Source: Schmidtea polychroa
Taxonomy: Eukaryota
Assembly (NCBI GenBank): GCA_044892525.1
Contig: CM097886.1
Span: 93,186,001 to 93,250,000, forward strand
Direction: 5' to 3'
DNA: 64,000 bases
A program made the position numbers and the translations under genes. Below, in pieces: positions 16,436 through 63,300 of the stretch. Numbering within the stretch: position 1 is the first letter of the stretch; each line of letters starts with the position of its first letter. The notes beneath the pieces are model-generated. The model was given only the letters and a program-made list of their open reading frames with translations, did no database searches and was not told where the DNA came from.

Positions 16436-16444
16436 AACGCATCA

Positions 16445-36365: not shown

Positions 36366-37994
36366 TAATCTTGTAAAAATTATAAACTTACANNNNNNNN
36401 NNNNNNNNNNNNNNNNNNNNNNNNNNNNNNNNNNNNNNNNNNNNNNNNNNNNNNNNNNNNNNNNNNNNNNNNNNNNNNNNNNNNNNNNNNNNNNNNNNNN
36501 NNNNNNNNNNNNNNNNNNNNNNNNNNNNNNNNNNNNNNATTTTATAAAAATAAAATTATAAACCAAATTATTGATTTTGGGATTCCCATATCTCTAAATT
36601 TGGCTTCAATGGCCCTATCTTCCAATAAAATTAGCGAAAACCACTAAAATCTATTTTTAGTAACAGCCCCCCCCCCCCCCCAGAAAACGACGACACTATT
36701 AATAATTTAAATTAAATATATAAATATGTATATATGTGTGGGCGTATGTATATGTAGGTGTATGTGTGTATATATACATATATATAAATAACCTTATAAA
36801 AATACAACCACCTTTCCCCCTAAAGACCCCAAGTTGTATAATAACAAGAATTAAGGTTATTGCTAGTCGTCCTATAATCCTAAAAAATTTTATAATTTTG
36901 CATTTATTATTATTCTCATTATTACCCTTAGTGTTATTATTATTACAACGATTATTATCATCATTATTATTATTATTACTATTATTATTATTACTGCTAT
37001 CAATGTTATTATTATTATTATAAATAGAACAAGAAAGCATAAGAATGAATGAATAAAAAAAATAAATAAATAAAATAGGAACTTTTATTGTGCGAAATGT
37101 TACACCAAATGTTATACCCAATCATTATTTCATCGAATTGAAGTTCGAAGACTCTTTTGATAGTAGATTTTGATAGTTTGATTTTTGCATGATCACCTTG
37201 CTCTGAGCAAGAGCATTTGTTCTAGGAAAATGAGAAATTGCATAAAAGTGAATTAGAAATGTCATGGATTATGATTAGAGTATAAATTCCGACTTCATTG
37301 AATAATTGATGGACATTCATACCTAAGAAAATTCTAGAAACACAATATATAAAAATCACATATTATTAAGGAAAGAGTACTTGATATATTACGAATTTAA
37401 GGTACCATATCCAATAAAGTTTTAAACAGAAAATTAATTTTATATCCGTTTACATTTTCTGTCATCTAGTAAGTGAAAAATTCGTTTTGAGAGCCGATAG
37501 AATTCCAATAATGAATGGAAATTCACCTTTTCCTGAAAAGTTTACTAAGTAATTTATACCCGTGTGCTCCGACTAGTGTTTCTATTTCAGGTTTAAAATC
37601 GTTTTCAGTTGTAAACTTTCCGTTCAAATATTTAAAAATAAGCATTTTATATAAAATAAATTACCCTCCAATAGGAGAAATGGTAATTACACCACTCATG
37701 ACGAGTACAACTGAGGGATAAGTAAGTAACACGAGTAGCTAGGCTCGTCACTATTACTGATCACCCCAGTGTACCCGAATTTATTGGTAAAATCCGATTT
37801 ACTGGTTTAATCCTGAAAATAAAAAAAAATTATTAAATTTCAAATTACCATCCAGTGGTAAACAAGATTTTAAATTAAAATGGTTAACTTAAACAAAGTT
37901 AATTAATAATGTAATTTAAAAAGATCAACGTTTTTTGTATGTTTTTGAAGCAATAATGAATACATGAAATTGAATGTTTTCTCTAAATTTCTAG

Positions 37995-39048
37995 TGTTAG
38001 GTTCGATGGGTATGTATTCGAACTAACACAAAAACGTTTCACTGACTCCAATTAATTTATAACGCGTGTAGGTAAATAAAATAACGAATATGATTTAAAT
38101 ATTTATTAACAATAAATAAGTAGTAACACAATTGTTTATATTACACAATTAATCACGCTGCTTTCTAAAGAACAGAAAACGGTTATACAAACCGCCCTAA
38201 AGAGTATTACTAAGAATCAAGGCTGGCCCTAAATGCGCCAACAGCCCGATATAGATGAACGGGAAAGAGATAGGGAGGTTTACCAAATTTTAACGCGATA
38301 GTGTCAACCAAGAAAATGGTTAACACTTTAAATTTTATTTGAAACGAAACAGCTACAAAAAATATGTGCTGACGTTGCAATCCCCTTTTATATTAACTTA
38401 AATAAATGAATATAATTATATGTATATATTACAAAGCAAAATTACTAACTAATTAGAAATCCAAAAGAGATAAAACCACAGATGTGTTATTCGAGCTTAA
38501 TTTCTTGTGGATAGAATTTTCTCTCTTGTTTCGATTATAGCTCCAACAAAGATTGGAGATGGGTTCTTGTAGTTTTGAATAAATATTGTAATTTTGAATA
38601 AATAATTCCAAATCCCGAATTGATAAAATTAATTTTCGATCGATGTGAAATTCTAATGTCTACTGTTAAATCTCCAATTAGATAGGAGATGTAAAATTGC
38701 AAAATTAGTTTCGTTAAATGTCAAATGACACAAATTTGTTTCTAATCAAATCGATTGCTTCTTTAACTACTACGTCTCAAATGTTTCTTTCGGTTCTACG
38801 TGACTTAACTTTCTCTCCCCTCAATCTAATTTTTCAACTAGTATTTATATAAATTTATTTATTTTAAATCTATTAATAGTAATTATTTAATTACTATTTT
38901 TATTATATATTTTTAAACAATTACTATTTTTGTTACCAATCTATTTTTAGTAATTATTTATTACTATTTATATTTTAATTCCAATTTTAGTAATTAATTA
39001 TTATTTAATTTCAAAACTTTTGATTCCGGTTCCTACTGAACCCCAACA
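37995..39048 (-). repeat. 3' LTR of the Gypsy element (1054 bp)
   Basis: TGTTGGGG...CCTAACA. 38631-39048 matches 51412-51829 with two substitutions. Confidence 0.88.
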
Positions 39049-39376
39049 TGTCTTCCCCCTAACAAGATTTTAGTCCCGAAAATTAAAGCGGTAAAGATAA
39101 GACAATTNNNNNNNNNNNNNNNNNNNNNNNNNNNNNNNNNNNNNNNNNNNNNNNNNNNNNNNNNNNNNNNNNNNNNNNNNNNNNNNNNNNNNNNNNNNNN
39201 NNNNNNNNNNNNNNNNNNNNNNNNNNNNNNNNNNNNNNNNNNNNNAATTAATCAAATATTGTTCATAAAATTAATGTTTGTCAATTTGAATAACTGGATT
39301 GGATTGAATTGTCGAAGGTGCTTTGATTGAGGACGTATAGCAAATTGCTAGGTCCATTGAACACATAGCCGAATTG

Positions 39377-41539
39377 CTAGTATTTTCTCCTTTTCATGAT
39401 CTTGGCACTTTCGTTACGGATCCTTTGTTCTACTATGTCTGGTCTGTAACTGACCACCAAAGTCTCCCGTGTACTTACCTCTTTGTACACAATTGAGGAG
39501 ATGATGTACGAGCCCTCATTAGCCTCCAATACTCCGTAATCGGGAAAATTGGATACGGCTACTTCATGGATTGGGCCTCCGTCGTATTCCTTGATACGTG
39601 GTTTCCATTTGCTGTCGGGTCTCTGCCACCAACTAGGATCTTCTCTGACGAAATCTTCCCGTATTTTGATTGAGTTGCCCCTTCCGACGAACTCGCCTTC
39701 ATTCACGATAATAGGCTCTCCTGCAATCGTGGGTTCACTCTTTGTTGCCAATATCTTGGTCAATGCAGGATCTGGTGGCTGATAATGGGTTTCTAAGAGA
39801 TCGTCATCCTCATCCTGGATGGGTATCCTAGGCATTTTCTTTTTTGTACTCTTAGGAATCTCATTTTTGCTTTTCGTAGAGGTAGGGACATTTTTCTCCT
39901 TTTCCTCTTTCTGGGTGGGTTTCTCTGTTGTTTTCTTTTTAAATTTTAAATCTTGTAGCTTAAGTAGTGGTGCTACAGCTTGGGGTAATGCTCCTTCTTC
40001 TGCTCCTTGTTTGGGTTCACTCAACGGGGCCAATGCTTTCAAGATCTTGGTGACCCGTTCAACTAGTTAACTGCCGGCGGTGGTTTTTCTGTTTCCATTT
40101 TAGCCGAATTCACCACTCTACTGTCATTGCTAAGGGTGACTTGGAGGCAGTTATCATCCGCGCTCTCGCAAGTGGCATAGTCGTCTTCGTCAGCAATAGA
40201 GATGGCTGGCGGCGACAATGAATCTTCTTCCACTATTTTCAGCAGCTTCGACCTGGGAATATCTTCTTTTACATAGCTCTCCATAGCTAAAGGTTTCTGC
40301 ATGCTTGAGGTTCCGGGATCCATCTGCTTTATTTGTGAAGACACCACCTCTTTCCGGTTGTCTGGTGAAAAAGTCATCTACCCAGATATCTCGTAAATTG
40401 TCGTATATCTCCATAATGGTTGTTACATCATTCTCCGTTTGAAGGTCCGAGAAGTGATATGCCTCTTTACCGGTGACTGCTTTTGCCAAATATGCCAAAC
40501 GGTAATACCCGTTGCATTTCTTTAAGTCCCTACTTTCGAGGCATTTAGCTGCGCCTAACTTACGGATTCCGAGTGCGCGCTGCATTGGGAATCTGATTAC
40601 TTCTAATAGGTCCTTTACTAGCAATCCCACGATGATTTCCCGATCGCAGATTTTCCTAATTCTTTCGGCACAGTCTTCTCCGTCGAACTGTCCGGTTATT
40701 TTTCTCTCGGTCATACCATGCGCATGCGATTGGTAATGTTTGACCTGTGCTCTGGGGGTAACTCTAGTGTTGAGTATCAGATCGCCATTGAAATGTGAGA
40801 TTGAGATGGCCAAAATTGCCGGTTTCAGGAATTGTCGTAGTGTAGCGTAGTGAGCTGCTACGAAAATGGTGAGGTTATCCTCTTGTTTAGGGTCCAAGCC
40901 CTGTCTTACGAAAGACTTAAACGTTTTGATGTCATTATCATTGACATTATATGTCCAATTTGGGTCATTAACCCATCTCGTTTGTGTTTCTCTGTGAGGT
41001 TCCAGAATTTCCATTGCTACGATGGTATCTATTCCTTCACATAACAGTGAGATGTTCTTTTCCCTTCCATCCCCGTTTTCTATTTCGAGGGTTGTGTGCT
41101 TTTGCAGCAAAATAGGGTTTGTGGCACCAGGAACATAAACCGTAAATGGTTTGTTAATGGCGTGTATCCACAGGTGGTTGGTCAGAGTATGTCTGCCAAA
41201 CTCAGGCATGACCTCGGTAAGCCTAATACTGCCGTTATGCTTGCCCTGGATTCTTGAAATAATCATTTGACGCTTTGGGGCCTCGTCAAATTTGAAATTA
41301 TTGGGTATGCCTGAGCAATGTCCGTAAAACCAGTGCCTTTGTCCTTTTCTGCTTTGCTCCATTACCTGCTTCTCCAGGTTTTTATAAATAAGTTTTTCCT
41401 TTAGTAAGTTTGTAGCACGTATAATGCTATGTCTTCCTTGATATTGGGATATTGGATGGCTCTGCATTCCTGAAATAAAAATCATTAACCATAATATCAG
41501 ATATACTGATATGCCATAATAGGCTAAAAAGATATGCAT
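39377..41539 (-). CDS. Accessory ORF of the Gypsy element (pieces 40190-41539, 40063-40377, 39377-40042) with a degenerate REX4/ISG20-like DEDDh exonuclease domain
   Basis: ISISHFNGDLILNTRVTP...VKHYQSHAHGMT...IIVG...YRLAYLAKAVTG...NDVTTIMEIY follows the REX4/ISG20 pattern. The Exo I motif reads FVAAHYAT instead of VAxDCEM. The pieces can be joined by two single-base frameshifts. Confidence 0.6.
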
Positions 41540-41669
41540 GAGTCTTATTATAAAAGATCTACATATGCTGAATTTTAATGCTACCTGGAGCTCTACGTAA
41601 ATATAGATTTTAAGATATATATAAATATTTATATATGATTTTTCCCCCGGGGAAGTCTGTAATTGTCAT

Positions 41670-42570
41670 AATTGCGACATCAGTACTCCATCGTAAGCCC
41701 TTATGGCTTGTCTAAAATATAGCTTGGTCCAAATACCCATAGCTATCAGTGTAGTTATTAGTGATAGTACGGCCGATACCGTAATCCATACCCCTATGGG
41801 TATTTTCAGAATGTATCACAACAGTTTGTCAGGTTTGGGGGCGTTTGGCAAGATATTGGTTTGATAGGTGACAACTGTCTAAGATGTTGCCACATTGCGG
41901 GATGTATCACCATGTTTTCCCTGACTACTTTTGGAGGTGTTTTCGTTATAACTGGCTGTTTCAGAGGTAATATCTCCTCGAATACCTCGAACCACCTATC
42001 GTCCTGCCGTTTCCTCGGACTATAGTATATAACTAGGACCGAATATTCTACGGACTGATTTAGATACATTTCTTGGGAGGGAGAGTTCTGGTCTAACCAT
42101 AATGTGTCTCTCGTGGTTGGTCCGTCTAGAATACAGACTTTCACCTTTTCCTCCCTGGTAATTTGCTGACTAAACTTTACTTTATCCCTTTCGTAGGATA
42201 TCGATATGCGATTTGTGAAATCTGCCGTCCGTAGGATCCAATTTGATACGTGATAGGTATACCAACCACTCTGATATAACCTTGATGCTGCGATATGCAG
42301 TTTATAATCCCTCTCAGCTTTTAAATCATATATAATTCCCACTCTTTTTCTTCTGAATTGAGTTGGCGGATCCGCAAGTACTTGTTGTAGACATGTAAAT
42401 TGAATTTTGTAGCGTTATCGCACGTTGTGAGTATGCTAATTCCGTGATACGTTCTTATAAAATGTAAGTGTTCCACTTGCATAGCCATAGGCTGAAAATA
42501 TGCCTTTTTAACCCTTTTTGCCATTGCCAAAGTTATCATACAGCTTATTATCAACAAAAAGGTTACCGAT
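41670..42570 (-). CDS. Second membrane-protein region fused to the integrase C-terminus (signal-like segment, RRKR, C-terminal TM; two frameshifts)
   Basis: VTFLLIISCMITLAMA is in frame with the integrase tail; then FRRKRVG after a frameshift at about 42345 and IPIGVWITVSAVLSLITTLIAMGIW after a frameshift at about 41815. Confidence 0.55.
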
Positions 42571-45500
42571 TTTGGAACACCCCGTGATCTCAATGGGTAT
42601 CGGTGTTCTTGTGGTTCTTCGGTAGTGTTTGGTTTCACTTGTTTCTCTGGTGCTTTTACTTTTGAATTTCCAGAGGTTCCTTTTGTTGAGATTTCGCACT
42701 TTTTACACCGATTAGCATGCACCATTATTGGTTCTGCTTTTCTGTTGGCCACAAGTTGTAATATGAGATTTGTATCTGTGGTTCTCAGTACCTCATATGG
42801 CCCTTTGAAATTCCGCATGAGTTTTGGTGATAAGCCTTTCTTTTTATAATGACTTTCCAACATCACCTGGTCTCCAACCATTATGCCATGATCCTTGGCT
42901 TTTCGGTCATGATAATCTTTGGATGCCTCCTGATTATATTTTATACTGAGGCCTGCTCTAGCCCATGCTTCCTGCATTCTTTCCCTCATTTCCATTAGAT
43001 AATCTTCCTGATCTAAATACTGTCTTGCTTTAGGGAAAAACAACAGATCTACTGACATTTTACTTTGCCTTAGATACATTAGGTAAAATGGTGTTTCACC
43101 TGTTCCTTCGTGCACTGCATTTCTCTATGCAAATAAACAGGATGGAATGTGGATGTCCCAGTCCGTTTGTCCCGAATTTACATATGATGCTAACATATTA
43201 GCTAAGGTTCCATTAAATCGTTCTACTAGCCCATCCGTCTGTGGGTGATATGGGGAAGTGTTCAACTTTAGAACTCCGAAATAATCATTTATTCCTTTGA
43301 GCAAATTACTCATGAAATCAGCTCCCCGATCCGTTAATAACTTTGTAGGTACTCCATACCTAAAGACAATTTGTTCAACGAAAATTCTAGCTATTGTATC
43401 AGCTTTGTGATTAGGCATCGGGTAGGCTTCTGGCCACTTAGTCAAGTAGTCGCAGAAAACTAATATGTACTTGTTTCCGCTATTAGATTCTTTGAATGGC
43501 CCCAACACGTCCATTGCCGTCATTTCCATAGGTGTAGATGGTACTGGCATCGGCTTCATTGGTACGTGTGGTTTCTTTCCGGTGTTTCTTCTGGTGATAC
43601 AGATCCTACATGTCTGACACCAGGTTTTGACGTCTTGTTTCATGTCGGGCCAAAAGTATTTTTGTTTTAACCTCGACAATGTTTTTCTGGATGACAGGTG
43701 GCTTCCTAAGGCTCCATCGTGATACTGCAACATGAGTGCTTCACGATATTTCTTAGGAACCATTATAACGTTATCTCTTACATCTGAATATTTAAATAAT
43801 CCCTCTTCCAGCACAAATTTGTCTTTATTCTTTTCCCAGTATTTCGTGAATTCTGTGGGCACGTATTTTGCTTCCAAGGCTTGACGGATAATATTGATTT
43901 CTTCGTCAGATTTTTGTGCCTCCATTAAATCAGCTAGCCGGTTGGCTTCTCGAGTCAGTGTGAAGATAGTCCCTTCGAGACGTCCTTCCTTCACATCTTC
44001 TACTTCTTCTTCCTGGTCCATTCTTGATAAAGCATCTGCATTACCATTGTGATATCCTTTTCTGTAATGGATTTCTATGGCATATGGCTGTAAAATTAGT
44101 GCCCATCTGATTAGTTTTGATGTATCCATTGTGTGTTTTGTCAGCCACTGTAATGGTCTATGATCGGTGTACACTATAACCTTTCGACCCCATAGATAGG
44201 TCCTAAACTGGGTTATAGCATAAAAAATTGCTAAAGCTTCTAGTTCTATCACTGCGTAGTTTCTCTCGTGTGGTTTTAACCCTCTGCTAGCGTATGCAAT
44301 TGCATACTCATCTCCTAGGTCATCTCTCTGACCTAGCACAGCACCTATGCCCGAGTGCTGGCGTCTGTCATACCCAAAATTGTCTCTCAAAGTCTGGAAA
44401 TCGCAATATAGGTGGCTTGACGAGATTTCCCTTGAGCATATCAAATGCTTCTTGCTGTTCTGTCCCCCACACAAATTTGACATTTTTGCCCTCTAACTGT
44501 GTAAGTGGAAAAGCTATAACCGAGAAGTTTCTAATGAATTTTCTATAATATCCAACTAGGCCTAAAAACCCTTTGATATGTTTAACGGTTTTAGGCTCTC
44601 TGAAATTCTTTACCTTTTCGACATTAGCTGGATCGGGTTTAACCCCGTCTCGTGATATGATATGTCCAACATATACTACTTCTGGTTCAGCCCATTTACA
44701 TTTGATTGGTTTCGCTTTCATGTTTGCGTTGATCAACCTCTTGAATACATCTTCTAAATGTTCCAAGTGTTTTTCCAAATTTGGCGAGAATACTATGACA
44801 TCGTCAATGTATACCATCGCATGATGTACATCCATGAGCATCAAATTCGTTGCTCTTTGAAATGTGGCTGGAGCTCATGTGAGTCCAAATGGCATTACGT
44901 TATATTCGTAATGACCCATACTCGTAGAGAACGCTGTTATTGGTATAGTCTCATCTTTTAACTTAATTTGATAAAATCATATTTGGACGTCCATTACTGA
45001 GAAGAACTTAGCGTTTCTCATGCGTCCATAGATATAATCTAACAATGGCAATGGATGGCTATCTTTGCATGTTGCTTTGTTAACCATGCGATAGTCGTTA
45101 CATAATCGTATGATCCATCCTTCTTGGCTACCACTATCATTGGCGATTGATATGGTGATTTACTATGCCTGATTATGCCATGTTTTAACATCAATTTCAC
45201 CTGTTTATCTACTGATTCCTCCAGACTGAATGGGATACGGTATGGTCTCAACTTTATAGGTTTTGTATTGGTGAGAACAATCTCATGTGCTAACAGGTTT
45301 GTTTTTCCCAGATCGTATTCATGTTTTGCGAATACCTGATCATTTTTCCTCAATAGTATATTTACTTGGATGTTTTCCTTTCTGGTTAGCATTTTGCTAT
45401 TTGCCGTAGGTGCATCGTAGTACTCAATGTCTGGATCTCTTTCTTCTGCCTTTACGGTGAGTATCGACCCTTCTCCGGTGGCTTGTGGCTCGTTTTGTTT

Positions 45501-46130
45501 CCAGATTCTGCCCACTCTGGTATCTGGATATAAGTAAAATGGTTTAATGTCCAGATTGGCTACCCTGATTGGTATTCTACCATTGACTATTAAACCTACG
45601 CTATGCGTAACTGGTATATTGTATTTCTCCGAAAATCTTTCGTCTGGTTCAAATGCAACTTCACCTTCCCAATTATTGCTTGTAGCTACAAAGCATACCG
45701 TTTCTGCTCTGGGTGGTATGATAGTTGTATGATCTATATAAGCTGTATCATCGTTGTAAATTTTTCTCTTTTTACCTCGTGCTCGGATTAACAATCCAGA
45801 TGCACAATCGAATACTACTCCTCGTAGTCTTTTTAGGATGTCCATACCCAATAGACATTCGGCTGGGAGCATTCTCATCACTATGATGTCGTGATGGAGC
45901 TCCTGGTCACATAGCTTAATCTGTCATGATAATGACCCTATTACGTTTAATGAGGATCCGTTTGCTCCTGTTAATTTTACTCCTGCCGGTTTTAGCGACT
46001 GCAGTTCATGATGGTTTAACAATTTAGCTTCAATTATGGTACCATCTGCTCCTGAGTCTATCACCGCATTAACTGTATGTCGGTTCACTCTTATTTTTAT
46101 CATTGGCTTTTTATCCAAATTCACTGGGTT
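42570..46130 (-). pseudogene. pol: Gypsy pol: protease, RT, RNase H, integrase, disrupted by stops and single-base frameshifts
   Basis: AVIDSGA (46058), MPFGL, VYIDD, TDAS/IAYASR, an H-H-C-C zinc finger, MDVLGP, TDRGADF and DGLVERFN. Confidence 0.95.
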
Positions 46131-49112
46131 ATTGACCATCAAGATAGTATCGTGCGAGATACCGATTGTATTGGCTCTCGTTTGTTCTGCTTCCAGTAAT
46201 TCAGGATCACTCAGTTGAGGATTATACTCTTTAAATTTAGCTTTAATTGACTCTAACGCTTCCTTTGGATAGTGCACTTTAGGTAATTCTGGCAATGTTG
46301 AACATGTTAGATTATTAAATATGGTATCTTCACTGATTTTCCATTGGTGTCGTCCTGTTCTGAATGTTGTTTCCTTTGAATGTTCCCACCCCTCGTTTGG
46401 TGCGGATGGTAAACTCCTCAAAGTTGGCAATTGTACATATCTTGGACTTCTCTTGAATCTGGGTGACCTTATGTCGAATTTTTGGTCGGAACTGTCATAT
46501 TCTCCTTCTGAGGACGGTTTTCTCACGTAGATTTCCTTTGATTGGTCATATGGAGGAAGATATTCCTTAAATCTCGATTTTCTTTGTTGCTGACTCGGTT
46601 TTTTGTTGTAGTTCTGTTTTCGTGATTGATTTGATCTTGAAGATGTTTCACGAGAGCCTCCATTACCTCCTCCCTTTGAATTGTTATCGTCCCGATAACT
46701 CGAATACTCCTCCATTTCTGTTCCAATTACTTCATATTTGACCAAATGTTTCTGTTTAATTTCTTTAATTTCTTTTCTGTGATGTTTGAATAATGCAAAC
46801 TCTGCACACATAGGACATAGTCCTAACAGCAGTTTCCATGACCATCCCCCAATTTTGAATATGCTATATGTTGACATCAATTGCGTAATTATCAGCTTTA
46901 AAATAACAAATATTGCGTAAATTCCTGAACATCCAGCGACGAAAATACCAAAATTGGTAAATCGTCCCCATATTTTCATCATTACGTTCTTTGCTGCTTC
47001 TTTATAGTGTTCCGGTCCAAATAATAAATTGTAGTCTGGTCGTATTAAGCTATCATGATAAATTGTTCTTATAATTTCCGTGATACCTCTGTCTCTGATT
47101 TGTGGGAATAGCAATGTCCTTCTTGCTTCCTCGATATCGTCGGGAGTATAAATCCCTCCTTTTGCTAATTCGTATAGTGACTTGAATTCCAGATTATCCT
47201 TTAATTTAGTTACCTCCAAGGTCTCTACCCGTTGTGTAGATGGTTTTCTTTCCGTCAGAGATATCCACATGTCATTTATTTTGTATAATGGTGATATTGC
47301 CGGGTTGCATATAGCTGGTTGAGGTTTAGCGTTTTCCTCAAGTAACTTTCTGGTTACTGGCATAACAAATCTCAATTTTCCTTGGTAAGACACTGGCAGT
47401 TCTAGAGTGCATTGATTAAATCTGGCTAATTGTTCTTCCACTGGTTTACACTCATAGCTATATATAGCTTCTCCCATGATTCTGCCAAACATTCCATCTT
47501 CCAATAACATTGGAGTAACCAACTCTGGATTAACGATAGATATTGCTAATCTATTTCGGACTATTTCACGATTTAGCTTGCAATCGTTTAGTATTACCTC
47601 TTGATACATATCTTGCACTTGTCCTTGCAGATCATGATATAAATAATCTACTTTATTATTTATATAATTCGTGATTTTGATATCCTTTACATGTAGGACC
47701 TTGGAATTCCGAATATATTCTCTTGACAAGAAAATTCCTTTGTAGTTCGTTTCGTATACTCTTTTCCCACATTTAGTCTGTTTATCTTTTCGGACAAATC
47801 GAATTGCTTCCGTCTTGTCTTCCGATATCAACACTAGAGGTGTGTTTTCCTCTCCGATATCTTCCTTCTCTTGTTTGTTGATTTTCTTCAACGTTTTTGC
47901 TTTATCCCAAACCTTTTCTGGATTCTGGGAGTCCCGATATTTAGTTCCATTTAATTTTCTAAAAGGAATTTTCTTGAGGAAAGCCAACTCACAATGATCT
48001 CTCATTTGTTCGTAAATTAATGTGGTGGTTCCCGTTTTACAACTGCCGAACTTGGCATTGCATTGCGGATGTGCCATCAATTTTCCTGTGGCCACATCGA
48101 ATGTTCCCTCGTACTCTCGTAATTCCACTGAGTAATCTTCTATGTCTACCACATAGGAAACTAAATTGCTACCGCGAATTTTCTTTCTGCCTTTGCAGGT
48201 TCCATCTGAGGCAATTGTTCCTCCTCGAGTGATTGTTATTCCCAGTGTTTTCCCAATTTCTGCCGAGATTGATACCTCGTTATCTATCCTCACGCTTCCT
48301 TTTCGAAATGCATCTAGGCAGTCTTCGGGCATTATGTTTACCGGTCTTGGTATTAATGTTACAGATAGAAAAGCAGAATAGTGATTACTACCGCAATAAT
48401 ATTCAAATGTAGCTCTCTGGATTCTACATTCCTTTATCGTGGTTCTATAAAATTCACTCTCTTGGTAGACGTAATATTCTACCTTTTCCCCTTGATGAAC
48501 CTTCTCTGGATACGCCTCTTTGCACTCAATTACATCTACTAGCGAATATATCCGAGATAGTTTAGGATTTCCACAGTCAAATACTGTTAGTGAATTTGTT
48601 TGTTTTAATATGCCCATCATTACCAGGAACATCAGGATCATGCTTGTCATGTTTCCTGTGCCTGAACTACCATTATTTATGGCTTCTTCCACGACTTCAT
48701 ATCGTGGTTTTGGAATTATTTCCTTTTCCCAAAATTTGTTTACGGTCATCCATACCTCCAGGTTATAATCTACCATTTCGACTATTTGATCGATTTCTCG
48801 TTCTATAAGCCTTTTATCCTCCCCTACTCGGGCTAAGGCATTTTGAATTAACAATGATAGTGATGTTACCACTTTCCCTCTTGTTAATCCTTGCTGCACG
48901 AATGCTTTTATGGCATCCTGAATATCTCCTGTTGATACATCTTTGGGTACTCTTTCCATTGTCTTCTTGACCTCTTTTATTATCTTCTTTACTTCGATGC
49001 CCTTGATTTTTTGAATTCTCCATTCGGGCCTGATGATCCCGATTATTTGTTGTATTCGTTTCCACAATAACAACCTTTCTGGCGTTGTCTCATCTCCCGC
49101 CTGGTTGTCCAT
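45924..49112 (-). CDS. env: Chuvirus/Jingchuvirales-type envelope glycoprotein in one uninterrupted frame with the retroviral aspartic protease
   Basis: Internal signal-like MILMFLVMMGIL (about 48650-48590), then LTVFDC...SLVDVIEC...CRIQRATFEYYCGSNHYS, a Cys-rich ectodomain, TM FGIFVAGCSGIYAIFVILKLII (about 46955-46875), a cytoplasmic linker and DSGA. Confidence 0.82.
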   Translation of the reverse strand: MDNQAGDETTPERLLLWKRIQQIIGIIRPEWRIQKIKGIEVKKIIKEVKKTMERVPKDVSTGDIQDAIKAFVQQGLTRGKVVTSLSLLIQNALARVGEDKRLIEREIDQIVEMVDYNLEVWMTVNKFWEKEIIPKPRYEVVEEAINNGSSGTGNMTSMILMFLVMMGILKQTNSLTVFDCGNPKLSRIYSLVDVIECKEAYPEKVHQGEKVEYYVYQESEFYRTTIKECRIQRATFEYYCGSNHYSAFLSVTLIPRPVNIMPEDCLDAFRKGSVRIDNEVSISAEIGKTLGITITRGGTIASDGTCKGRKKIRGSNLVSYVVDIEDYSVELREYEGTFDVATGKLMAHPQCNAKFGSCKTGTTTLIYEQMRDHCELAFLKKIPFRKLNGTKYRDSQNPEKVWDKAKTLKKINKQEKEDIGEENTPLVLISEDKTEAIRFVRKDKQTKCGKRVYETNYKGIFLSREYIRNSKVLHVKDIKITNYINNKVDYLYHDLQGQVQDMYQEVILNDCKLNREIVRNRLAISIVNPELVTPMLLEDGMFGRIMGEAIYSYECKPVEEQLARFNQCTLELPVSYQGKLRFVMPVTRKLLEENAKPQPAICNPAISPLYKINDMWISLTERKPSTQRVETLEVTKLKDNLEFKSLYELAKGGIYTPDDIEEARRTLLFPQIRDRGITEIIRTIYHDSLIRPDYNLLFGPEHYKEAAKNVMMKIWGRFTNFGIFVAGCSGIYAIFVILKLIITQLMSTYSIFKIGGWSWKLLLGLCPMCAEFALFKHHRKEIKEIKQKHLVKYEVIGTEMEEYSSYRDDNNSKGGGNGGSRETSSRSNQSRKQNYNKKPSQQQRKSRFKEYLPPYDQSKEIYVRKPSSEGEYDSSDQKFDIRSPRFKRSPRYVQLPTLRSLPSAPNEGWEHSKETTFRTGRHQWKISEDTIFNNLTCSTLPELPKVHYPKEALESIKAKFKEYNPQLSDPELLEAEQTRANTIGISHDTILMVNNPVNLDKKPMIKIRVNRHTVNAVIDSGADGTIIEAKLLNHHELQSLKPAGVKLTGANGSSLNVIGSLS

Positions 49113-51351
49113 TTCTTGGGCTATCCCTGCTAATGTTTTTTAGCTGAATTTTCCGAATCGTTTCCGGATTTAATTGCTCCTTAGGTGGAGGTTTCATTTG
49201 ATCCTTTCTAGGACGTCCTCGTCCATCTTTTTTCACTTTCTCCGGGGGTTTTTCAGTCTCTGGATTTGTTATAGCTTGAGACGTAGTGGCTCCTACGTTT
49301 GTTTCTCCTGGATTTAATCTGACGTACTCTGAGAAGTAATCTTGCTCGTCAATGTCCACCATTTGACAGGGACTAATTTCCTCTAGCCTTATTTTCTCGA
49401 TCTCTTCCGCAATTTCATTTGCTATATCTGGCAGTCTCATTAATGACCACTGGGACTCAGGTGGAGTTACTGGGATGATCATTACCGTGGTTGTTGCCAA
49501 TGGTAGACAACCCACATCCACTAGATATTCATCGTCATCCACTTGCCTACCATGGACCATTATCAGGAATATACCTGTAGATTGATCGGTGGCAATCACA
49601 TCTCTCCTCAATATTTTAACCTTGATATAACAATTATAAATCATTGTTAATGGTTCTTTCCCCATCATTCTCACGTCTAGATTAATGTTGCCTTGTCTAT
49701 CAGGCTGACTTCGGATAGCTTTCCCATTTTTCCTCATCAGTGCCTCGATCTGCGTCTGGAATAGGCTTGTTTCCTTTACCACTGGTAGTATAAGCGGAAT
49801 GATTGCTTCCAACAAATCTACTGGCATTCGTAATACTAACATCCAGTCTAGTATTTCTTTTATAGTTTCTCCATCTCGTGGAGATTTCTGCAATTCCAAC
49901 CCTAGTCGCTTGGTTAATTGTTGAGTTTCCTCCAATCTCTCTATTTCCATCTGAGTAATCAAGAATACGCTATCTTGATCCATTACTGCTACTGGCTTCT
50001 GAGCTCTCTTTGCTGTGAGCTTCGTCACTCTACCTGGAAGTATCCCGTTCTGTAGAAGTGTTTGGTTTGCCTCTAATTTTATTCCGCATAAGTATAAGTC
50101 ATATCCTTGATGCTTAATACTTGTCAATGTTTCCGCTAATTTATCGGCTCGACTTCTTACGTTTATATCGAGATTATACTCTTTATCCTGTGGGAGTTTT
50201 ATATTGAGTTGGGCATCTTGGAGATCCTATTCATGTTCCATGAGTTTTCCTAATTTCCTTAGGATTTTGTACGTGTCGTTATGATACTTTGGATCATCTT
50301 CGACCTGCGATATCAGTTTTACTACTGTATCGATTTCGTGAATTTTAATTTCTGTTTCTCCCAATTTTCCCAATTGTCTGGCCAGCTTCTGCTGGTACTC
50401 ATATCTGGAATCCACCAGTTTTAAACATTTTGTTAGGGTATCTGACCCTTCTTTTACCTTTGCTTTCCCTGGCAAGGTTCTATCGAACTCGCTTAGTATG
50501 GTGGCCATACTAGGTTCATCATCGGAACTCTCCTCTGATTCCGTTTCCTGAAGGTCCTCTCTAACGGAGTCCTTTTTTCTGAGAAATTCATCTCTTCCAA
50601 CTACCATAAAGATGGTACCTTCTTGGTCGGTCAATCTAGCCAACCTATTCTTTTCCTCCTGGATTTCCATTTCCAGTTGTTGCAGATACGTTAAGCCTTG
50701 ATCCTGGTTAACCATAAAGGTCGTCTTAGACTTGTTCACATTACCCTTATCGGTATTTTTATTGAACTGCCTCGTGTTTCCACTCTGGTTCTGAGGACAT
50801 GACCTCATCATATGTCCAAATTTCCCACATCCGTGACATTTTATCTTTCCTGATGAATTTACATCATCTCTTTTGATTGTACTAAAATTATTGCTGTTCT
50901 GAGGACTTCTAGTTTTTCAGACCGCAGCAACATGTCCCTTACGTTTACATTTTTCGCATTGCAAATTCTGTACTCTACAGTTTTCCGCATCGTGGTTATT
51001 CCGTCCACATTTGGTACATTGTATACCTTTGCGATTGTCCATAATTTTCCTGCTGGTACAATCTTTCGCTATATGTCCTTTTCTATGGCAAATGAAACAC
51101 TCTACCGGTGTTCTCTCACTGTTTACCAGGAACATGGTTGACTTTTCCAAGCTGCTTTCAATTACGACAGCTTTCCGTGTCAATTCATCAAAATCGTCAC
51201 TAGTATGTAATATTAGAGCGTTCCTCATTGTAGGAGTTAGTCCTGCCCATAGCTGATCTTTAACTAACAATTCTGTTGGCTTTGCCCATGTGGTTTTTGG
51301 TCCAAATGCTCTTTCGGCAATTAATGATAGCTGGTGTGCAAATTCCCCCAC
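49090..51351 (-). CDS. gag: Gag C-terminal region and extension: four CCHC knuckles, ubiquitin-like domain (about 50005-50208), AT-hook (about 49201-49235); one frame with two in-frame stops
   Basis: CFICHRKGHIAKDC, CTKCGRNNHDAENC, CEKCKRKGHVAAV*, CHGCGKFGHMMRSC and KKDGRGRPRK. ORFs 50917-51351, 50227-50811 and 49090-50127 share a frame. Confidence 0.85.
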
Positions 51352-51411
51352 ATGTTCATTAGCATTCTGTTTTCGATGATAAAATTGTTGTCTAAATATT
51401 CTTGTTGTCTA

Positions 51412-51829
51412 AATTTTCGATCGATGTGAAATTCTAATGTCTATTGTTAAATCTCCAATTAGATAGGAGATGTAAAATTGCAAAATTAGTTTCGTTAAAT
51501 GTCAAATGACACAAATTTGTTTCTAATCAAATCGATTGCTTCTTTAACTACTACGTCTCAAATGTTTCTTTCGGTTCTACGTGTCTTAACTTTCTCTCCC
51601 CTCAATCTAATTTTTCAACTAGTATTTATATAAATTTATTTATTTTAAATCTATTAATAGTAATTATTTAATTACTATTTTTATTATATATTTTTAAACA
51701 ATTACTATTTTTGTTACCAATCTATTTTTAGTAATTATTTATTACTATTTATATTTTAATTCCAATTTTAGTAATTAATTATTATTTAATTTCAAAACTT
51801 TTGATTCCGGTTCCTACTGAACCCCAACA
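51412..51829 (-). repeat. Truncated 5' LTR (418 bp); the rest of the LTR, the PBS and the gag N-terminus are deleted
   Basis: Identity to the 3' LTR stops at 51412 and is followed almost directly by mid-gag sequence. Confidence 0.88.
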
Positions 51830-52655
51830 CTAGGAGATAATGCCTCATCAAGATCGATATTTTGTTAAAAATTAAATTAATTAAAAGCCAAATTAGGCAT
51901 TTATAAACTAATTGATAAAAACAAGGATCGAGAATGCAGTAAATTTAAATAGAGTATGTTGGATGTTTGAACGTGATTAAAACCGAATCGAATACACCCA
52001 GATAATCCGGCAAGCTCACGGACGTGAATAGATGGGCGTATACAGGTGTATGAAGAGATAGATGGGGAGGCGAATACCTATGTGTGTACACGCATACAGG
52101 GATATGTCTGAAATGGAGTGTGAGTAACGACAAGCGGGAAATCTATGAATAAAGAAAACGTGGTTTTGTATTTTGTGTTTGGGTTACTAAAAATGGAACG
52201 ACACTCAATTGGTAGGAATAGACGGGGACCTGAATAAAAAATCGGACATAAGCCTTCTATCGGCAGTCCGTGAACCCCAGTTGGTGCTAGACAATTATAG
52301 TATGCTACGCATGCTCACTTTTTGCTAGTACTCAAACCCTTGATACAGTACCAACGTTGATTGCTCAACGGGTATCAAGTGGTCAGCTGTCAATTGTATT
52401 CTGGGTTATGCTGGAAACAGCACGAGTAGGTAGAAACCTTGAATTACCTGTATATATATATATTTTAATTGAATTTTAAAAACGTATAAATTAAATGTAT
52501 AATCAATTTAAACACTTGGTTTAATTTTATAAAAAAACTGGCCATGTATTTGCATCGTATAATAATATATACCTTTTGCTTTTTAAATAGATTTGTGTTT
52601 TTTTTAATATAATATATTTATGTTAACATAGTTTTTAATGTGAGAAACGCTGTAA

Positions 52656-56615: not shown

Positions 56616-57414
56616 ACAGACGCGAGCAATGTCATTTTTGTGTTGGGTTGTTAGTTTATCTCGCGTCTGTGTGCGCTTTCTTTTCTTTGTTTTTGGCTTG
56701 TGTGCGCACACAGACGCGAGCAAGAAGTATGGCAATTTTATTAAGTAGTTTTGTAATTTTTTTTGATTTAGAAGTTAATTAGATTTTTGAATGTGAATGG
56801 ATTTAGAGAGTTGTTAATGGTATCGATTTCGGTTTTTTGGAGTTTATGATTTTTCGGATAAAAGATGGCTGCTTTTAATGTAGAAATTTATGAATCTGAT
56901 AACTCCATACTACCAACGAAACTGATGGTTCATTTTTTATGATCCCAAGAGATCCTGATAACTTTAATGGTGTTTTTGGCCAACTAATATTAAATTTATT
57001 TGGTGGATGGATTTCCGTTGGTATTCGATGCAATAATTGTGATGTAGTAGCTACACAAAGAAAGGTTCCAGATAAAATGATTGAGAAGAGTTCAGCTACA
57101 AGATTGTTTAATATTACTGAAAGTACTGGAGTTGTTATGACTGCTATGATCCCTGATTATCGATCTCAAGTATGTCGTGCACAAATGGAAGCAGCTCGAT
57201 TTAGATATAAACATGGATATGAAATGCCTTGTGACATAATATGTCGTTCTATTGCGGATATTAAGCAGCTTTCTACCCAATCAACTGAGACGCGACCATT
57301 AGGTTGTTCAATGATGGCATTATCTTATGGTATTGAAATGGACAAATTGTTATTATTCAAAACCGGCTCTGTGGATGAAAATAAAATTATTATTCGTTAT
57401 CTTGAATTTAAACA
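56616..57414 (+). repeat. 5' LTR of copy B (first 67 bp missing), containing the PSMA6-like ORF 56939-57520
   Basis: About nine substitutions relative to the 3' LTR. The ORF reads through the LTR end into the PBS. Confidence 0.88.
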
Positions 57415-57432: not shown

Positions 57433-57560
57433 CCGGCTAGCCAGCCGGAACAAGGTAATTAATGATTATAAAATGTCTTTTTTGTGTTTATGTATATTAT
57501 GGGTATTATGTGTTTACTAATATTTCTGTAAAATTAACCATTCTCCCTTCCCTACCGAGC

Positions 57561-59342
57561 ATGGGAGGGTGCTGCTATGGGCCCCAGCACTCTTTTAAAG
57601 GGGGAAGCCAGGGGAACAGGATAAAGAACAGAGCTAAGTCAAGGGTGAGGGCGAGCGAGGTAATGGGTTTTGAATTGCGATGGGAAAGTATAAATCAAAT
57701 ATTTGTCAAAACTCTTACTGGTAAGACAATTACTCTTGACGTTGAATTGAATGGCACGATTGAAAAGGTAAAAGGAAAAATTCAGGACAAAGAAGGAATT
57801 CCGTTAAATTATCAAAGGTTAGTCTACGCAGGGAAGCAATTAGAAAATAAAAGAATGTTGAATGATTATAGCATACAAGTAGGTTCGACACTTCATTTGT
57901 CACTCAGGCTGTGCGGTGGCAATGACGAAGAGATTTTAGAAGAAGAATTGTGGAAAAAGAGAATGAAAAAAAGAAAATTAACGAGATTTAGAAACAAGAT
58001 TCTGAATGATATAAAGGGTAAGGATGTTAGCAAATGGTTGGAGGAATATGAAGATCAAAAGGAGAGTCTAGATGAAGAATTAAGAGATCTAAGAACGATC
58101 AGTGAAAAATTGCAAAGATTGGACATCAATGCAATCTTAGATAAAGACCTGGAGGAGATCGAGGAAAAACATCAAATAATTGGGGCATTGATGGAAAGAA
58201 AAGCAAATCAATCTTTTATGGAAAAGAAGGAAAAGGTGAATGATGATACCATCAAGAAGAATAATGCAGTGCATAAAAGAAAACTGGAAAGTCTACAGAA
58301 AATTACAATACCTGTCTTTGAAGGCAAGATGAAAGAGTACGAACCATGGCAAGCAGCTTTTACGGCGTGTGTTGACGAAGCGGAAGGTGATGAGGTTGAA
58401 AAGATGTTTCACCTGCACAAGTACCTTCACGGAGAGCCATTAAAGTTAATTGAAAATCTAGGATATTCGACAGAGGCTTATCAAATGGCAAAAGAGAAGT
58501 TGGATAGGCGATATGGTGGGGATGAAAGGATATATTTATCAATGTTAGAGGAGATGGAACAGTTCAGGCCAATTCGAGAAGGAGATTTGAAGGATCTAGA
58601 CTTATTTGTTGGATTATTAGAAGCAGTCACCGTGCGATTTAAATCCATTGGGAAAGATTCCGAGTTAAATACTGGATATCTTTTTCAAAAGTGTTTGGGC
58701 AAGTTAACAACGGATCTTGTGTATAAATGGAAGAAAGAGAAAATAGAAAAGGAATTGCGGGAGACGATAGAGAATTTGAGAAGATGGATACAACAAGAAG
58801 CGGAGATCCTAAGGTCCACTAACGAGGTCGTGTATGGGACTCAACCATGCACCAGGGCTTATGATGGGTCAAGAGTAGAAGGTGTGTCTGTAGAAAGAGA
58901 AAGCTTCAATCCAGGAGGTTGGACGCATTTTACGGGGCAACCAGATGGCAAAGTTAAAAGTGGAACGGTTATACAGGTGAATAACTCTAACGGCTATAGA
59001 TCAGAGTGTGTACAATGTGGTGGTCAACATTACCTAGACCAATGTGACAAGTTTAAGCAACTCACAACATTAAGTGAAAACTGGTCACTAAATGAAATGC
59101 AACAGGGAAAAGGGTGGAATATTGAATTGGCGAAAAAGGGAGAAAGAATAATGGAGAGATTACACCTAAACAAACTGAACAGAGACAGGTGCTTGGCCGA
59201 GTATAGCGATGGTGGGTGGAGAATCCACAATGATGTTTCAAAAAAGGTGCGTGGTGCGGCGGCTTATATAATACAAAGATGGGTTTGTGAGGGTTATTGG
59301 AGATTGAGCCAAAATGCAGAAAATGGAGGGGCGAAGGGATAA
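57561..59342 (+). CDS. gag: Ubiquitin-Gag fusion, copy B (ubiquitin 57693-57920), knuckles deleted and fused in frame to the pol remnant
   Basis: Near-identical to 14786-16292. An 845-bp deletion at 59067/59068 relative to copy A. Confidence 0.88.
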
Positions 59343-59495
59343 AATGGCGAGGGAAGTGCAAGAAATGAAGGGGAAAAGGGATAAACTGACACGGGAATGT
59401 ATCTTCAAATTATGTTGGAGTATAAAAGAAGAAGGAGAAGCTGATGGGGATTTGAGATTGACACTAAGGTGTCAAGGGGGGGGGGGGGGGGAAGA

Positions 59496-60361
59496 TGGTA
59501 AATTATGAGCTCAATACGCGTCTGTGTGCGCGTTGTATTGTGTGATGGGTTTGTGTGCGCACACAGACGCGAGCAATGTCATTTTTGTGTTGCGTTGTTA
59601 GTTTATCTCGCGTCTGTGTGCGCTTTCTTTTCTTTGTTTTTGGCTTGTGTGCGCACACAGACGCGAGCAAGAAGTATGGCAATTTTATTAAGTAGTTTTG
59701 TAATTTTTTTTGATTTAGAAGTTAATTAGATTTTTGAATGTGAATGGATTTAGAGAGTTGTTAATGGTATCGATTTCGGTTTTTTGGAGTTTATGATTTT
59801 TCGGATAAAAGATGGCTGCTTTTAATGTAGAAATTTATGAATCTGATAACTCCATACTACCAACGAAACTGATGGTTCATTTTTTATGATCCCAAGAGAT
59901 CCTGATAACTTTAATGGTGTTTTTGGCCAACTAATATTAAATTTATTTGGTGGATGGATTTCCGTTGGTATTCGATGCAATAATTGTGATGTAGTAGCTA
60001 CACAAAGAAAGGTTCCAGATAAAATGATTGAGAAGAGTACAGCTACAAGATTGTTTAATATTACTGAAAGTACTGGAGGTGTTATGACTGGTATGATCCC
60101 TAATTATCGATCTCAAGTATGTCGTGCACAAATGGAAGCAGCTCGATTTAGATATAAACATGGATATGAAATGCCTTGTGACATAATATGTCGTTCTATT
60201 GCGGATACTAAGCAGCTTTCTACCCAATCAACTGAGACGCAACCATTAGGTTGTTCAATGATGGCATTATCTTATGGTATTGAAATGGACAAATTGTTAT
60301 TATTCAAAACCGGCTCTATGGATGAAAATAAAATTATTATTCGTGATCTTGAATTTAAACA
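59496..60361 (+). repeat. 3' LTR of copy B (866 bp) with the PSMA6-like ORF 59886-60368
   Basis: TG...CA. A 13-bp deletion relative to the copy A LTR separates the MAAF leader from the PSMA6 frame. Confidence 0.88.
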
Positions 60362-63300
60362 ATTATAGCAATCCAATAATTGTTTAAACAATTTAATGCT
60401 AAAATTTAATATCAACAAAAAATATCAAAAATTAATTTCCACAGATAAAATTTTCAGTTTTAATATTTTAACATTTCAAATTCTTGCTACAGTAGCATGG
60501 CCCAACATAACTGCTTGTTACGCACTTGTATTCTAGTGATCATGGTTGTTATTCGGTGTTTTATTGATTGCAGCTTCCAAATCTCGGATCATCTTCGATT
60601 ATTGTAGCAATAAGTGCGGAGGAAAGTAAAATCACTACGAAAGAGTGCTTCAACAGTCCTAATGTCAATTCCTGGATTTCATATCTCAAATCGAATACAG
60701 CAGAATATTGAAATAAATGAAAAGAAGTAAAAAATATTATTTGACGAAGACAGAGAAATGAATATAATTTACAAATCTATTTTTACATTTATTACCAACG
60801 CTAAAATACATATAACGATAGAAACATGTACAAATACGATACATAAATAATTCTAAAACTAAAAGTCATTCAATCGTAATTTATTACGAAGCTTAATAAT
60901 CCAAATAATCATTAAACAAATACACAACATAGTTGGGATTAGAATAAGCAATATTTGATACAAACTTATTTGCGGTTTTCCCAAATCTAAAACAGATATA
61001 AGTAAACATGATGGTAAAAAACAAAGATAATGAAGAACTATAATATAATACAAAATTTCGTTACTAATTATAAATTATTAAAAACTCTCAAAAAGAACTT
61101 TATCGAAATTTGTTTTTATCACAAGGGAATTATAATAGAAAAATATAATTAATTAAAAAATATAATTAATAATATAATTAAGGTAAATCCAGAGGGCTTT
61201 AACAAAGATGTTATTTTGAATATGTTTTAATTATTGGTATTGAATTTCACCAATAATAAAATTCTATCAAGAAAAGAAAGACAATGCGCATAAAGTAGAT
61301 ATTACTAAAATATTTGTAGGATGCCTGTAAATAATACCTATTCGAAATTATATAATATTTATGCATGTTGAATTTGTATAATTAATCTTATTAAAAAGAT
61401 TGAAAATTTTGAAATCTCAAAATGTGTTAAAAAATTACGAATTATTTTGAATATTTTTTAATTATCGGTATTGAAGTTCACGAATAAAGATACTCATAAT
61501 AAAATTCTATCAAGAAAAGAAAGACAAAGATAAAGCGTAAATAATTAATATTGCTAAAATATTTGTAGGATGCCTGTAAATAATACCTATTCGAAATTAT
61601 ATAATATTTATGCATGTTGAATTTGTATAATTGTTTTTTTTAAGAGATAAGATTTTTAGGACATGTAATAAACGATGAAGGAATACACGCTAATGACAAT
61701 GAAATTATCGTGATTGAAAATTTCGAAATCTCAAAATGTTTAAAAAAAAATTATTATAGTTGATTTATAAAGAAAATAATAATATGTATTCAAAACCACT
61801 CGTAAAATTGTGCGATATAAATCAAACAGAAAATATGTGGACCAATGAATGCGAAGAGTCCTTTCAAGAATTAAAGAAAGGATTAATAACAGCTGATAAT
61901 AAATTCTATATCTGCTTTTAATTGTAATCAACAGTTTTAATTTAAATTGTATAAATAAATAAGAAATGCCAAAAATAGAATTCAATTTTATTTAAAATAT
62001 GCATATAATCAATTATTGAAATAAGAATTGACTTAATTACAGATTTAATATTCGAAATCTAAATAAATCTGGATTCTCGCCAATACTGCTTGTTGAGAGA
62101 AAGGAAATATTTCTTTCAATTCGTTCATTGAATTTAATTGATCAATTCATAATTTAATTGTAAATATTGAAGAAAAAACGATATAGAATAATTCAACAAA
62201 AAACAATAATTCGAATAGACAAAAGCAAAAATTGGAAAATTAGTTTTATGATTACCAATTATACCCACATTTCAGCATGATACAGAAAGAAACTGATATA
62301 GCGTTTTTATCTTTAGGCGAATGAGGTCATTTAATAGTTTGATGCATAAGTTCCGAAATCCTCATTTAAAATTCATATTTAATTAAAACTCTTTTCCTAT
62401 ATATGATGTATTTACAATTTAATTATTAAATTAATATTTATTATTTGGAAAGTTAGGGACACTAAACAAATATCTCTCGCGCAGAATTTCTTTTAGTTGA
62501 TTTCAATTAAAATTTTTCCAATAAAATAAAATAATCATTAAATAGAATTAATTTAAAAAATAAGGTTTTCCTTCAAAAACAAGAAGAAAAGAATTAATAT
62601 TTTGAAGTGTCACAAAATTTATTATTATTGTTATTGATATAATTATTNNNNNNNNNNNNNNNNNNNNNNNNNNNNNNNNNNNNNNNNNNNNNNNNNNNNN
62701 NNNNNNNNNNNNNNNNNNNNNNNNNNNNNNNNNNNNNNNNNNNNNNNNNNNNNNNNNNNNNNNNNNNNNNNNNNNNNNNNNNNNNNNNNNNNNNNNNNNN
62801 NNNNNNNNNNNNNNNNNNNNNNNNNNNNNNNNNNNNNNNNNNNNNNNNNNNNNNNNNNNNNNNNNNNNNNNTATAGTGATGATTAAATTTAAACAATTAA
62901 ATGATAATTTAAGCCTTTTGTTGCGATTAATATATTTAATATAAATGAATAAATTGTCGACTATTAGATAGGCTTTGACAATCGAAAATTTTTTCATTTG
63001 TATTAAATATTGATATAATAATTGTCAGAAATATTTTGGTTAATATCAATATTATTATTATTATTATTATTATTGATAAAATTACTATTAATTTTAGGCG
63101 AATACTTTTTGTGATCTAAAAAAACCAATTTTCTGACGATTAGCTAAACCGTAATTTCAAATTCATCAAAACTCATATAACCCGATTTTTGGATTTTATT
63201 TTTTTCAATCACTTATACGAGGGGTGGGGAACCTGCGGCCTGCCGGAGCTTCATGTGTGGCCTCCGGAGCCTTATCGAAATCAATCTTAATTTATATAAA

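Follow-up and report, generated by a model that had tools for sequence, protein, structure and literature searches.

We analysed a stretch of 64,000 nucleotides of the Schmidtea polychroa genome (assembly GCA_044892525.1, contig CM097886.1, positions 93,186,001 to 93,250,000; hereafter the window), in which an earlier note had described an envelope glycoprotein (Env) inserted between Gag and the protease (PR) of one giant polyprotein. The element in question extends on the minus strand from 51829 to 37995, from TG to CA, covers 13.8 kb and is equipped with long terminal repeats (LTRs) and a 4-bp target duplication. The position of Env between Gag and PR in a single frame was confirmed. The minus-strand frame at 45924-49139 matched the Pfam model PF24664 (Monjiviricetes_fusion) with E 8.7e-85, and aspartyl protease models matched its C-terminus (residues 1009-1066); BDV_G (Borna G) gave a weak match (E 0.0042). 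The window copy is a dead, broken member of a recently active, young, high-copy Ty3/gypsy (Metaviridae) family, here called family A. Its features are listed below from the 5' to the 3' end of the element. Lineages A' and B to E are sister lineages in the same genome, pN/pS is the ratio of nonsynonymous to synonymous change, and GP2 designates a second membrane protein.

51830-51833, no strand: 5' copy of the 4-bp target-site duplication (joint 37990-51830 in run X2, four letters fitting both sides)
51412-51829, minus: 5' LTR remnant of 418 bp with TG start, 99.5% identical to 38631-39048
50785-51402, minus: Gag, C-terminal capsid part and CCHC zinc knuckles, one stop inside (PF00098, E 1e-07)
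49990-50214, minus: possible ubiquitin-like domain 1 (Ubl1), by eye only
49459-49695, minus: ubiquitin-like domain 2 (Ubl2), from a five-lineage profile; conserved in the database proteins P0004 and P0005
49177-49239, minus: GRP motif in the sequence, which we take to be AT-hook-like; similar motif in P0004 and P0005 by eye
48684-49088, minus: Bcl-2-like helical domain, immediately upstream of the Env signal (four-lineage profile)
48591-48653, minus: internal signal segment 1 with a small-residue, putative cleavage site; aligns to stronger segments in lineages B, C and D and in P0010
46960-48590, minus: Env ectodomain, chuvirus/mononegavirus-like, 14 cysteines (PF24664, E 8.7e-85; pN/pS 0.06 in four copy pairs)
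46869-46958, minus: Env transmembrane (TM) anchor, hydropathy 2.28
46128-46868, minus: cytoplasmic tail and linker, with a candidate protease site in the sequence just before PR
45798-46127, minus: retropepsin protease (DSGA), interrupted by the stop 45924-45926 (PF13975, PF00077)
45489-45743, minus: spacer between PR and reverse transcriptase (RT), by position where Burro's dUTPase-like segment sits according to the text of PMC6431247
44067-45293, minus: RT (YIDD) and RNase H (RH), with frameshifts and stops in the window copy (PF00078, PF17917)
42696-43745, minus: integrase (IN) with H2C2, core and SH3-like C-terminus, one stop inside (PF17921, PF00665)
42516-42578, minus: internal signal segment 2, hydropathy 1.74; equivalent in lineages B, C, D and E
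41669-42515, minus: GP2, FN3-like ectodomain, TM and short tail ending S-Q-L, broken here (pN/pS 0.18, 28 copies)
41666-41668, minus: stop codon of the first open reading frame (ORF1), TGA before CAATTA; ORF2 shares the frame (30/30 loci; kept in lineage A')
39377-41665, minus: ORF2, split in this copy, with 761 codons where uninterrupted (pN/pS 0.06-0.07 over codons 66-440)
about 40375-40870, minus: ISG20/REX4-like DEDDh domain of ORF2 (profile match to ISG20L2, E 7.5e-12)
39049-39062, minus: polypurine tract, from the sequence
37995-39048, minus: 3' LTR of 1,054 bp, TG...CA, from comparison with other copies
37991-37994, no strand: 3' copy of the target-site duplication

The frame containing Env comprises 1,071 codons from stop to stop and 1,062 codons when counted from the ATG at 49112. 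It is open, as the earlier note had stated, but it is not a complete unit: its length is set by the breaks of the window copy itself, a frameshift upstream and the stop at 45924 inside the protease, and it is thus a fragment. By Pfam, zinc knuckles lie upstream of it and RT, RNase H and integrase downstream in broken frames, ORF1 of this copy being split into at least nine pieces. The assertion that RT continues in the same frame after one stop applied to the start of RT, but the frame is broken again further on. Only one segment of the 1,062 codons passes a hydropathy of 1.6 over 19 residues, namely the TM anchor following the ectodomain (residues 732-750), which had been recognized correctly. 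The same holds for the cysteine-rich ectodomain of chuvirus type, whose resemblance to a viral fusogen was affirmed by PF24664 and which has 14 cysteines. The first ~150 residues, missed in the earlier note, are Bcl-2-like.

The limits of the element agree with the joint in run X2, which spans exactly its stretch with four shared letters, as expected from an empty site. A deletion in the window copy has cut the 5' LTR down to 418 bp and has also taken the primer site and the beginning of gag; the match to other copies resumes at 51403. LTRs of other copies measure ~1.0-1.1 kb. In all four other copies inspected, the LTR pairs are 99.3-99.7% identical and a primer site is present, which is complementary to the 3' end of the host genome's tRNA-Trp genes. 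The 4-bp duplication was found in four of five copies examined, the fifth having a truncated 5' LTR. The primer tRNA-Trp gene is itself located within a long tandem array with a 284-bp period (G000:C4:55022433 onward; L112), whose pattern matched 821 times in the genome; further tRNA arrays are present there. Identity between the window LTR (37995-39048) and those of the copies L021, L024, L027 and L032 is patchy and amounts to only 72-81%, while their coding regions reach 91-95%. Fast LTR turnover or LTR swapping may account for this divergence beyond that of the coding region. Moreover, the window copy was duplicated together with its flanks and lies inverted ~220 kb away (G000:C2:93452001-93465227; L034, L035; 99.6%), there lacking another 1.2 kb. 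Between the two duplicates, at G000:C2:93329035, lies a third ORF2 that shares the 491-codon break.

Searching the same genome yielded 3,805 candidates, 43 of which were scored. All 43 copies are 94-100% identical, colinear over the whole query and of the same domain order; none lacks Env or carries it 3' of pol. Open frames of more than 3,000 codons were present in ten copies, and in four of these the frame spans 3,366-3,369 codons and the match is free of stops. The giant ORF therefore exists without any repair of the frame. On natural pieces, Pfam identified Gag, knuckles, Env, PR, RT, RH and IN all in one frame. The complete order of ORF1 (~3,369 codons) is Gag (capsid, CA, and nucleocapsid, NC), Ubl, AT-hook, Bcl-2-like domain, signal, Env, TM, linker, PR, RT, RH, IN, signal, GP2, TM and tail, with ORF2 following. 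The pN/pS values of four copy pairs lay between 0.05 and 0.29 over every segment (Gag 0.11, Bcl-2-like domain 0.29, Env 0.06, RT 0.05), which shows each part of ORF1 to be under purifying selection; Env was thus under selection during the spread of the family.

The order with Env before PR is not restricted to this family. It recurs in the sister lineages B (with frames of 3,334 codons), C and D, of which B and D are 55-57% identical to family A in RT and 42-45% in Env. Among 2,859 candidates of the ENA, three unnamed proteins have Env, at 36-40% identity, and behind it PR on the same chain, two of them extending to integrase. These ENA relatives carry additional retropepsin-like domains as well (three to four matches in P0004; three in P0005, one of which follows integrase; one after integrase in P0006, by eye). 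Insertions of chuvirus glycoprotein genes are listed in the literature portions consulted as common in some animal genomes, and an endogenous gene of this kind nested in a gypsy copy, or else an assembly artefact, could in principle create such a chimera. The colinearity of all scored copies refutes this, and the same order in lineages B, C and D, in Burro-like copies (see below) and in the three ENA proteins leaves it a practically negligible probability.

The Env ectodomain comprises ~540 residues, and its 14 cysteines are invariant in five of five aligned relatives, which are 37-43% identical. Such Env proteins are assigned to the gB type in the text of PMC13524379. Based on the Pfam match and the published classification of relatives, the Env of family A is most likely a class III fusogen.

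Upstream of Env, the order Gag-Ubl-AT-hook stood up, but its components did so to a different extent. In an uninterrupted copy, Gag matched PF03732 (E 0.0029) and contained four knuckles. Ubl1 and the AT-hook were recognized by eye, Ubl1 giving no relevant Pfam match. The Ubl2 profile of five lineages found ubiquitin-like chains of ISG15 or UHRF1 in 12 of 13 PDB matches, weakly suggesting this fold (best E 0.011). For the Bcl-2-like domain, the best 60 of 106 matches of a four-lineage profile all belonged to the Bcl-2 family (best E 0.0025), and PF00452 matched the domain in lineages B (E 0.014) and D (E 0.0064); the window piece on its own had no Pfam match. The domain is most likely an apoptosis modulator, and signal 1 may double as its tail anchor.

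The order PR-RT-RH-IN downstream of Env is that of Ty3/gypsy. Ty3 RT was the closest solved structure to RT-RH with E 1.1e-85, the next group following with E 1.3e-56, as a ranking of similarity within the PDB only. In the spacer between PR and RT, a dUTPase is a candidate, for which Pfam gave no match. A border motif occurs six times in family A, three times just before PR, RT and IN, the pattern having been drawn from those sites after the fact. It likely marks sites of the element's protease.

The earlier note had also let a membrane protein close the polyprotein behind integrase, and this was corroborated. A signal, an ectodomain, a TM segment and a short tail follow integrase in lineages A, B, C, D and E, and by homology in A'. 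The model of lineage B GP2 has a mean predicted local distance difference test score (pLDDT) of 56.7, with ~70-80 over residues 101-275, and matches tandem FN3 domains (Foldseek E 2.8e-6; VIA Z 8.0-9.6 in the best eight rows, little above background). Family A GP2, whose single-sequence fold reached a pLDDT of 37.5, aligns to the last two domains of lineage B GP2 with only ~22% identity, so that its predicted FN3 fold is transferred from lineage B. In the ESM Atlas, GP2 fell to FN3 clusters at 0.86-0.89, which serves as a lead only. HMMER retrieved no match to GP2 among 1.84 billion representatives, the GP2 profile none among 7,536 candidate proteins of 680-2,000 aa, and a profile search of the PDB gave chance matches only. 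The last three residues fit what we take to be a class I PDZ-binding motif. Such endings exist in six of six lineages, at 29 of 30 family A loci and in both Burro-like copies examined, at a chance of ~0.024 per end; the lineages are kin, and the pattern was noticed after the fact. P0006 shows the same layout behind integrase with a shorter ectodomain and, by eye, no PDZ-type ending. Homology between GP2 and the membrane protein of the Burro-like copies was not detected by hhalign (probability 0.6). The likeliest role of GP2 is that of a partner in adhesion or targeting.

ORF2 follows ORF1 in the same frame behind TGA-CAATTA, which is presumably a readthrough context of the tobamovirus type. 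Lineages C (DEDDh match with E 2.2e-9) and D retain the catalytic residues of the DEDDh domain, A, A' and E have others in their place, and lineage B is devoid of ORF2. Judged from pN/pS, family A ORF2 is under strong selection despite the replaced residues. Its first 65 codons (41471-41665, minus strand) exhibit a pS of 0.017 versus 0.19-0.25 elsewhere, and five in-frame indels versus one frameshifting indel, at loci picked by ORF2 score, which favours open frames. This near-absence of synonymous change suggests that a cis-acting element lies here, which may serve readthrough, splicing or replication. Counting against readthrough, lineages C, D and E have no TGA-CAATTA junction and the stretch at the start of ORF2 folds no better than shuffles (z -1.2). 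A splice-acceptor-like TTTCAG lies two bases before an ATG at 30 of 30 loci in A and at 17 of 18 loci listed in C, and is not evident in A', D and E. Readthrough and splicing are both candidate routes to the expression of ORF2.

Contigs of run X1, by guess RNA like those of run X6, cover 30 of 30 bins of the element, and those of X6 end in poly(T)/poly(A) at 46769, 50365-50374 and 38254, the first of these just past the Env TM. The poly(T) end at this point, together with the many splice-like sites that AT-rich sequence of the planarian type offers, would suit an expression in which Env and GP2 share the frame yet are mainly produced from processed or subgenomic messages, Pol not being normally tethered via Env. 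We regard this as quite improbable. The poly(T) ends lie in A-rich sequence, as internal priming would give, no splice joint was seen in contigs of X1, X6 or X7 among the rows listed (84 further rows exist), and the Gag-Env-Pol frame is kept open in lineages that are only 55% identical in RT.

In our view, the window very probably holds a dead copy of a recently active GAG-ENV-POL family of Ty3/gypsy elements with gB-type Env, for which we propose a polyprotein threaded through the membrane. One frame harbors two internal signal-like segments and two TM segments with the enzymes between them; from this we infer the membrane topology, and fusion and infectivity are likewise proposed. The best reading of the topology, from sequence, is a co-translational model involving signal peptidase. 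Gag would be made in the cytosol, signal 1 would thread Env into the endoplasmic reticulum (ER), the Env TM would bring Pol back to the cytosol, and signal 2 would direct GP2 into the ER. The cut made by signal peptidase lies at the C-terminal end of a signal, and cellular Bcl-2 is tail-anchored. A cut at the end of signal 1 would therefore leave Gag-Ubl-Bcl-2 tail-anchored and not released, in departure from the release of Gag assumed in the earlier note, whose interpretation is supported in part. Three membrane-bound pieces would result: Gag-Ubl-Bcl-2 with its tail anchor, Env-Pol with an anchor at either end, and GP2. The element protease would then free CA, NC, PR, RT and IN at the border motifs that recur in the chain. 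With Gag, Env and Pol produced in a 1:1:1 ratio on a single membrane, capsid assembly would be coupled to the fusogen, and Env would act in cell-to-cell spread inside the host.

Several observations weigh against this proposal. In the window family, signal 1 remains below the hydropathy threshold given above; its counterparts in lineages B, C and D pass it with values of 2.3-2.95, so that the internal signal of the earlier note is strong in the relatives and weak in the window family. PDB searches with the Env sequence and with a five-sequence profile found no fusogen and chance matches only, and the border motif was not found in lineages B and D. Just one N-glycosylation sequon is present in the ectodomain, and a strong furin site is missing; according to the text of PMC13524379, the furin site of gB-type Env is not always conserved. 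The same two features would also fit an Env that no longer fuses membranes and acts instead as an anchor in the membrane or as a platform for assembly at the ER, in an element confined to the cell, for instance in stem cells of a host able to inherit somatic insertions. Membrane tethering follows from the layout alone, and the text of PMC13524379 gives the mode of transmission as unknown for most such elements. An anchor, though, would not need the whole ectodomain, which is kept over 540 residues with all its cysteines and with a pN/pS as low as that of RT. A non-fusing Env thus appears unlikely, and we favor the membrane-threaded polyprotein with a fusogenic Env.

The proposal of an undescribed lineage was not upheld, since Burro (PMC6431247) and GAG-ENV-POL errantiviruses of flatworms (PMC13524379) are, by the texts of these papers, already in print. 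The gag-env-pol layout itself is published for planarians, and the window family is a new member. The text of PMC13524379 describes GAG-ENV-POL errantiviruses of the gB type from Nematoda, Bryozoa and Platyhelminthes, of which nine come from flatworms, and states that GAG-ENV-POL elements are not monophyletic. The uninterrupted copies of family A display this order in an unbroken ORF in which RT and IN are intact, and their Env is homologous to the gB-type set (Platyhelminthes C1a) by PF24664 and by a match by eye to rows of the supplement. Smed_errantivirus_1-6 of the same source resemble the family in being multi-copy Ty3/gypsy elements with GAG-ENV-POL order, gB-type Env and a similar span (14.5-18 kb listed); no primer tRNA is listed for them, whereas family A uses tRNA-Trp. 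Closest to the window Env was Smed_errantivirus_4, a distinct relative with ~65% identity (65 matches over the first 100 aligned positions, counted by eye). The Env of Smed_errantivirus_2 agreed with that of lineage B at ~245 of 251 positions, again by eye, an agreement that marks the host as probably a dugesiid planarian. The main text of PMC13524379, figures aside, contains no occurrence of fibronectin, Bcl, exonuclease or Burro.

Burro carries Env in frame between gag and pol. As far as the text of PMC6431247 goes, the single ORF of Burro / GYPSM1 encodes Gag with CCHC knuckles, a Ubi2/SUMO-like and a BCL2-like domain, a mononegavirus-like Env, PR, RT, RH and IN. Family A, too, has Env in frame between the BCL2-like domain and PR with Ubl upstream (weak profile matches). 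However, Burro exceeds 30 kb (internal region up to 25 kb) and encodes 4,873 aa (PMC6431247), compared with ~15 kb and 3,369 aa in family A. The Burro cargo MATH, BIR and ankyrin had no match in the family A polyprotein or in ORF2, which is DEDDh-like instead; the same Pfam library detects MATH and BIR in Burro-like copies. BIR-bearing elements of this kind are abundant in the same genome (150 scored of 309 candidates). Two copies examined contain Env before PR, the MATH cargo and a membrane protein after integrase, and are 36-38% identical to family A in Env, 47% in RT-RH and 51% in IN. Their 3' parts additionally encode, in ORFs of their own, a TRAF-like protein and an IAP-like protein of BIR-RING type (L152:8852-10000, L153:432-1607). 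The window element is consequently a GAG-ENV-POL errantivirus of the gB type and a compact relative of planarian Burro, working like Burro but not Burro by size or cargo.

Sacco et al. in 2022 reportedly described nematode endogenous retroviruses with a continuous gag-env-pro-pol ORF. Metaviruses of nematode hosts with ENV before POL are cited as such in PMC13524379. Anakin elements have the same glycoprotein family on a BEL/Pao backbone (text of PMC7642597), whereas the RT of the window element is Ty3-like and the Pfam scan revealed no DUF1759 (BEL/Pao gag) in it, this domain being found in another element of the window. LTR retrotransposons of bdelloids resemble the planarian family in having a DEDD-family exonuclease as an extra 3' ORF, which is of the DEDDy / RNase D type in the portion of PMC5408684 consulted, unlike the ISG20/REX4-like DEDDh domain here. 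In the literature searched, neither a second membrane protein nor a DEDDh ORF2 was found described; figures, Repbase, Grohme 2018 and Sacco 2022 may describe the former. The second membrane protein closing the polyprotein thus seems to be unreported.

Elsewhere in the window, at 14672-17574 and 57459-59342 on the plus strand, a ubiquitin domain (E 6.8e-23) is fused in frame to a gag of BEL/Pao type that follows it (DUF1759, E 1.9e-11). The unit 14692-21075 is duplicated at 57467-63094 (~99%). Beside the ubiquitin-BEL unit, three near-identical segments lie on the plus strand (17629-18440, 56616-57414, 59563-60361), whose frame resembles, by eye, a proteasome alpha subunit fragment. There are also duplicated DNA-transposon fragments at 25375-25968 and 32466-33056 and at 5762-6244 and 27069-27551, which we take, by eye, to be Tc1/mariner-like and hAT-like.

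With regard to the biology of these elements, we tentatively suggest a possibility to which we give less than even weight. Planarian GAG-ENV-POL elements, Burro included, might be enveloped viruses whose single polyprotein is cut to yield two membrane proteins, a class III fusogen and a captured adhesion protein of FN3 type, whose PDZ-binding tail would dock budding particles at cell junctions or bind the target cell, while tail-anchored Bcl-2 on Gag and the DEDDh (pseudo)nuclease would act as counter-defence. If true, an entry system like that of complex retroviruses would exist within Metaviridae, spreading between the cells of a regenerating animal. The part that was not found described is the second membrane protein, which is conserved behind Pol. 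The shared Ubl-Bcl-2-Env block ties the compact flatworm errantiviruses in the text of PMC13524379 to Burro. Since the host of these young and abundant families seems to be a standard model of regeneration, the cell-to-cell movement of envelope-bearing gypsy elements from outside the insects may be studied in the host.

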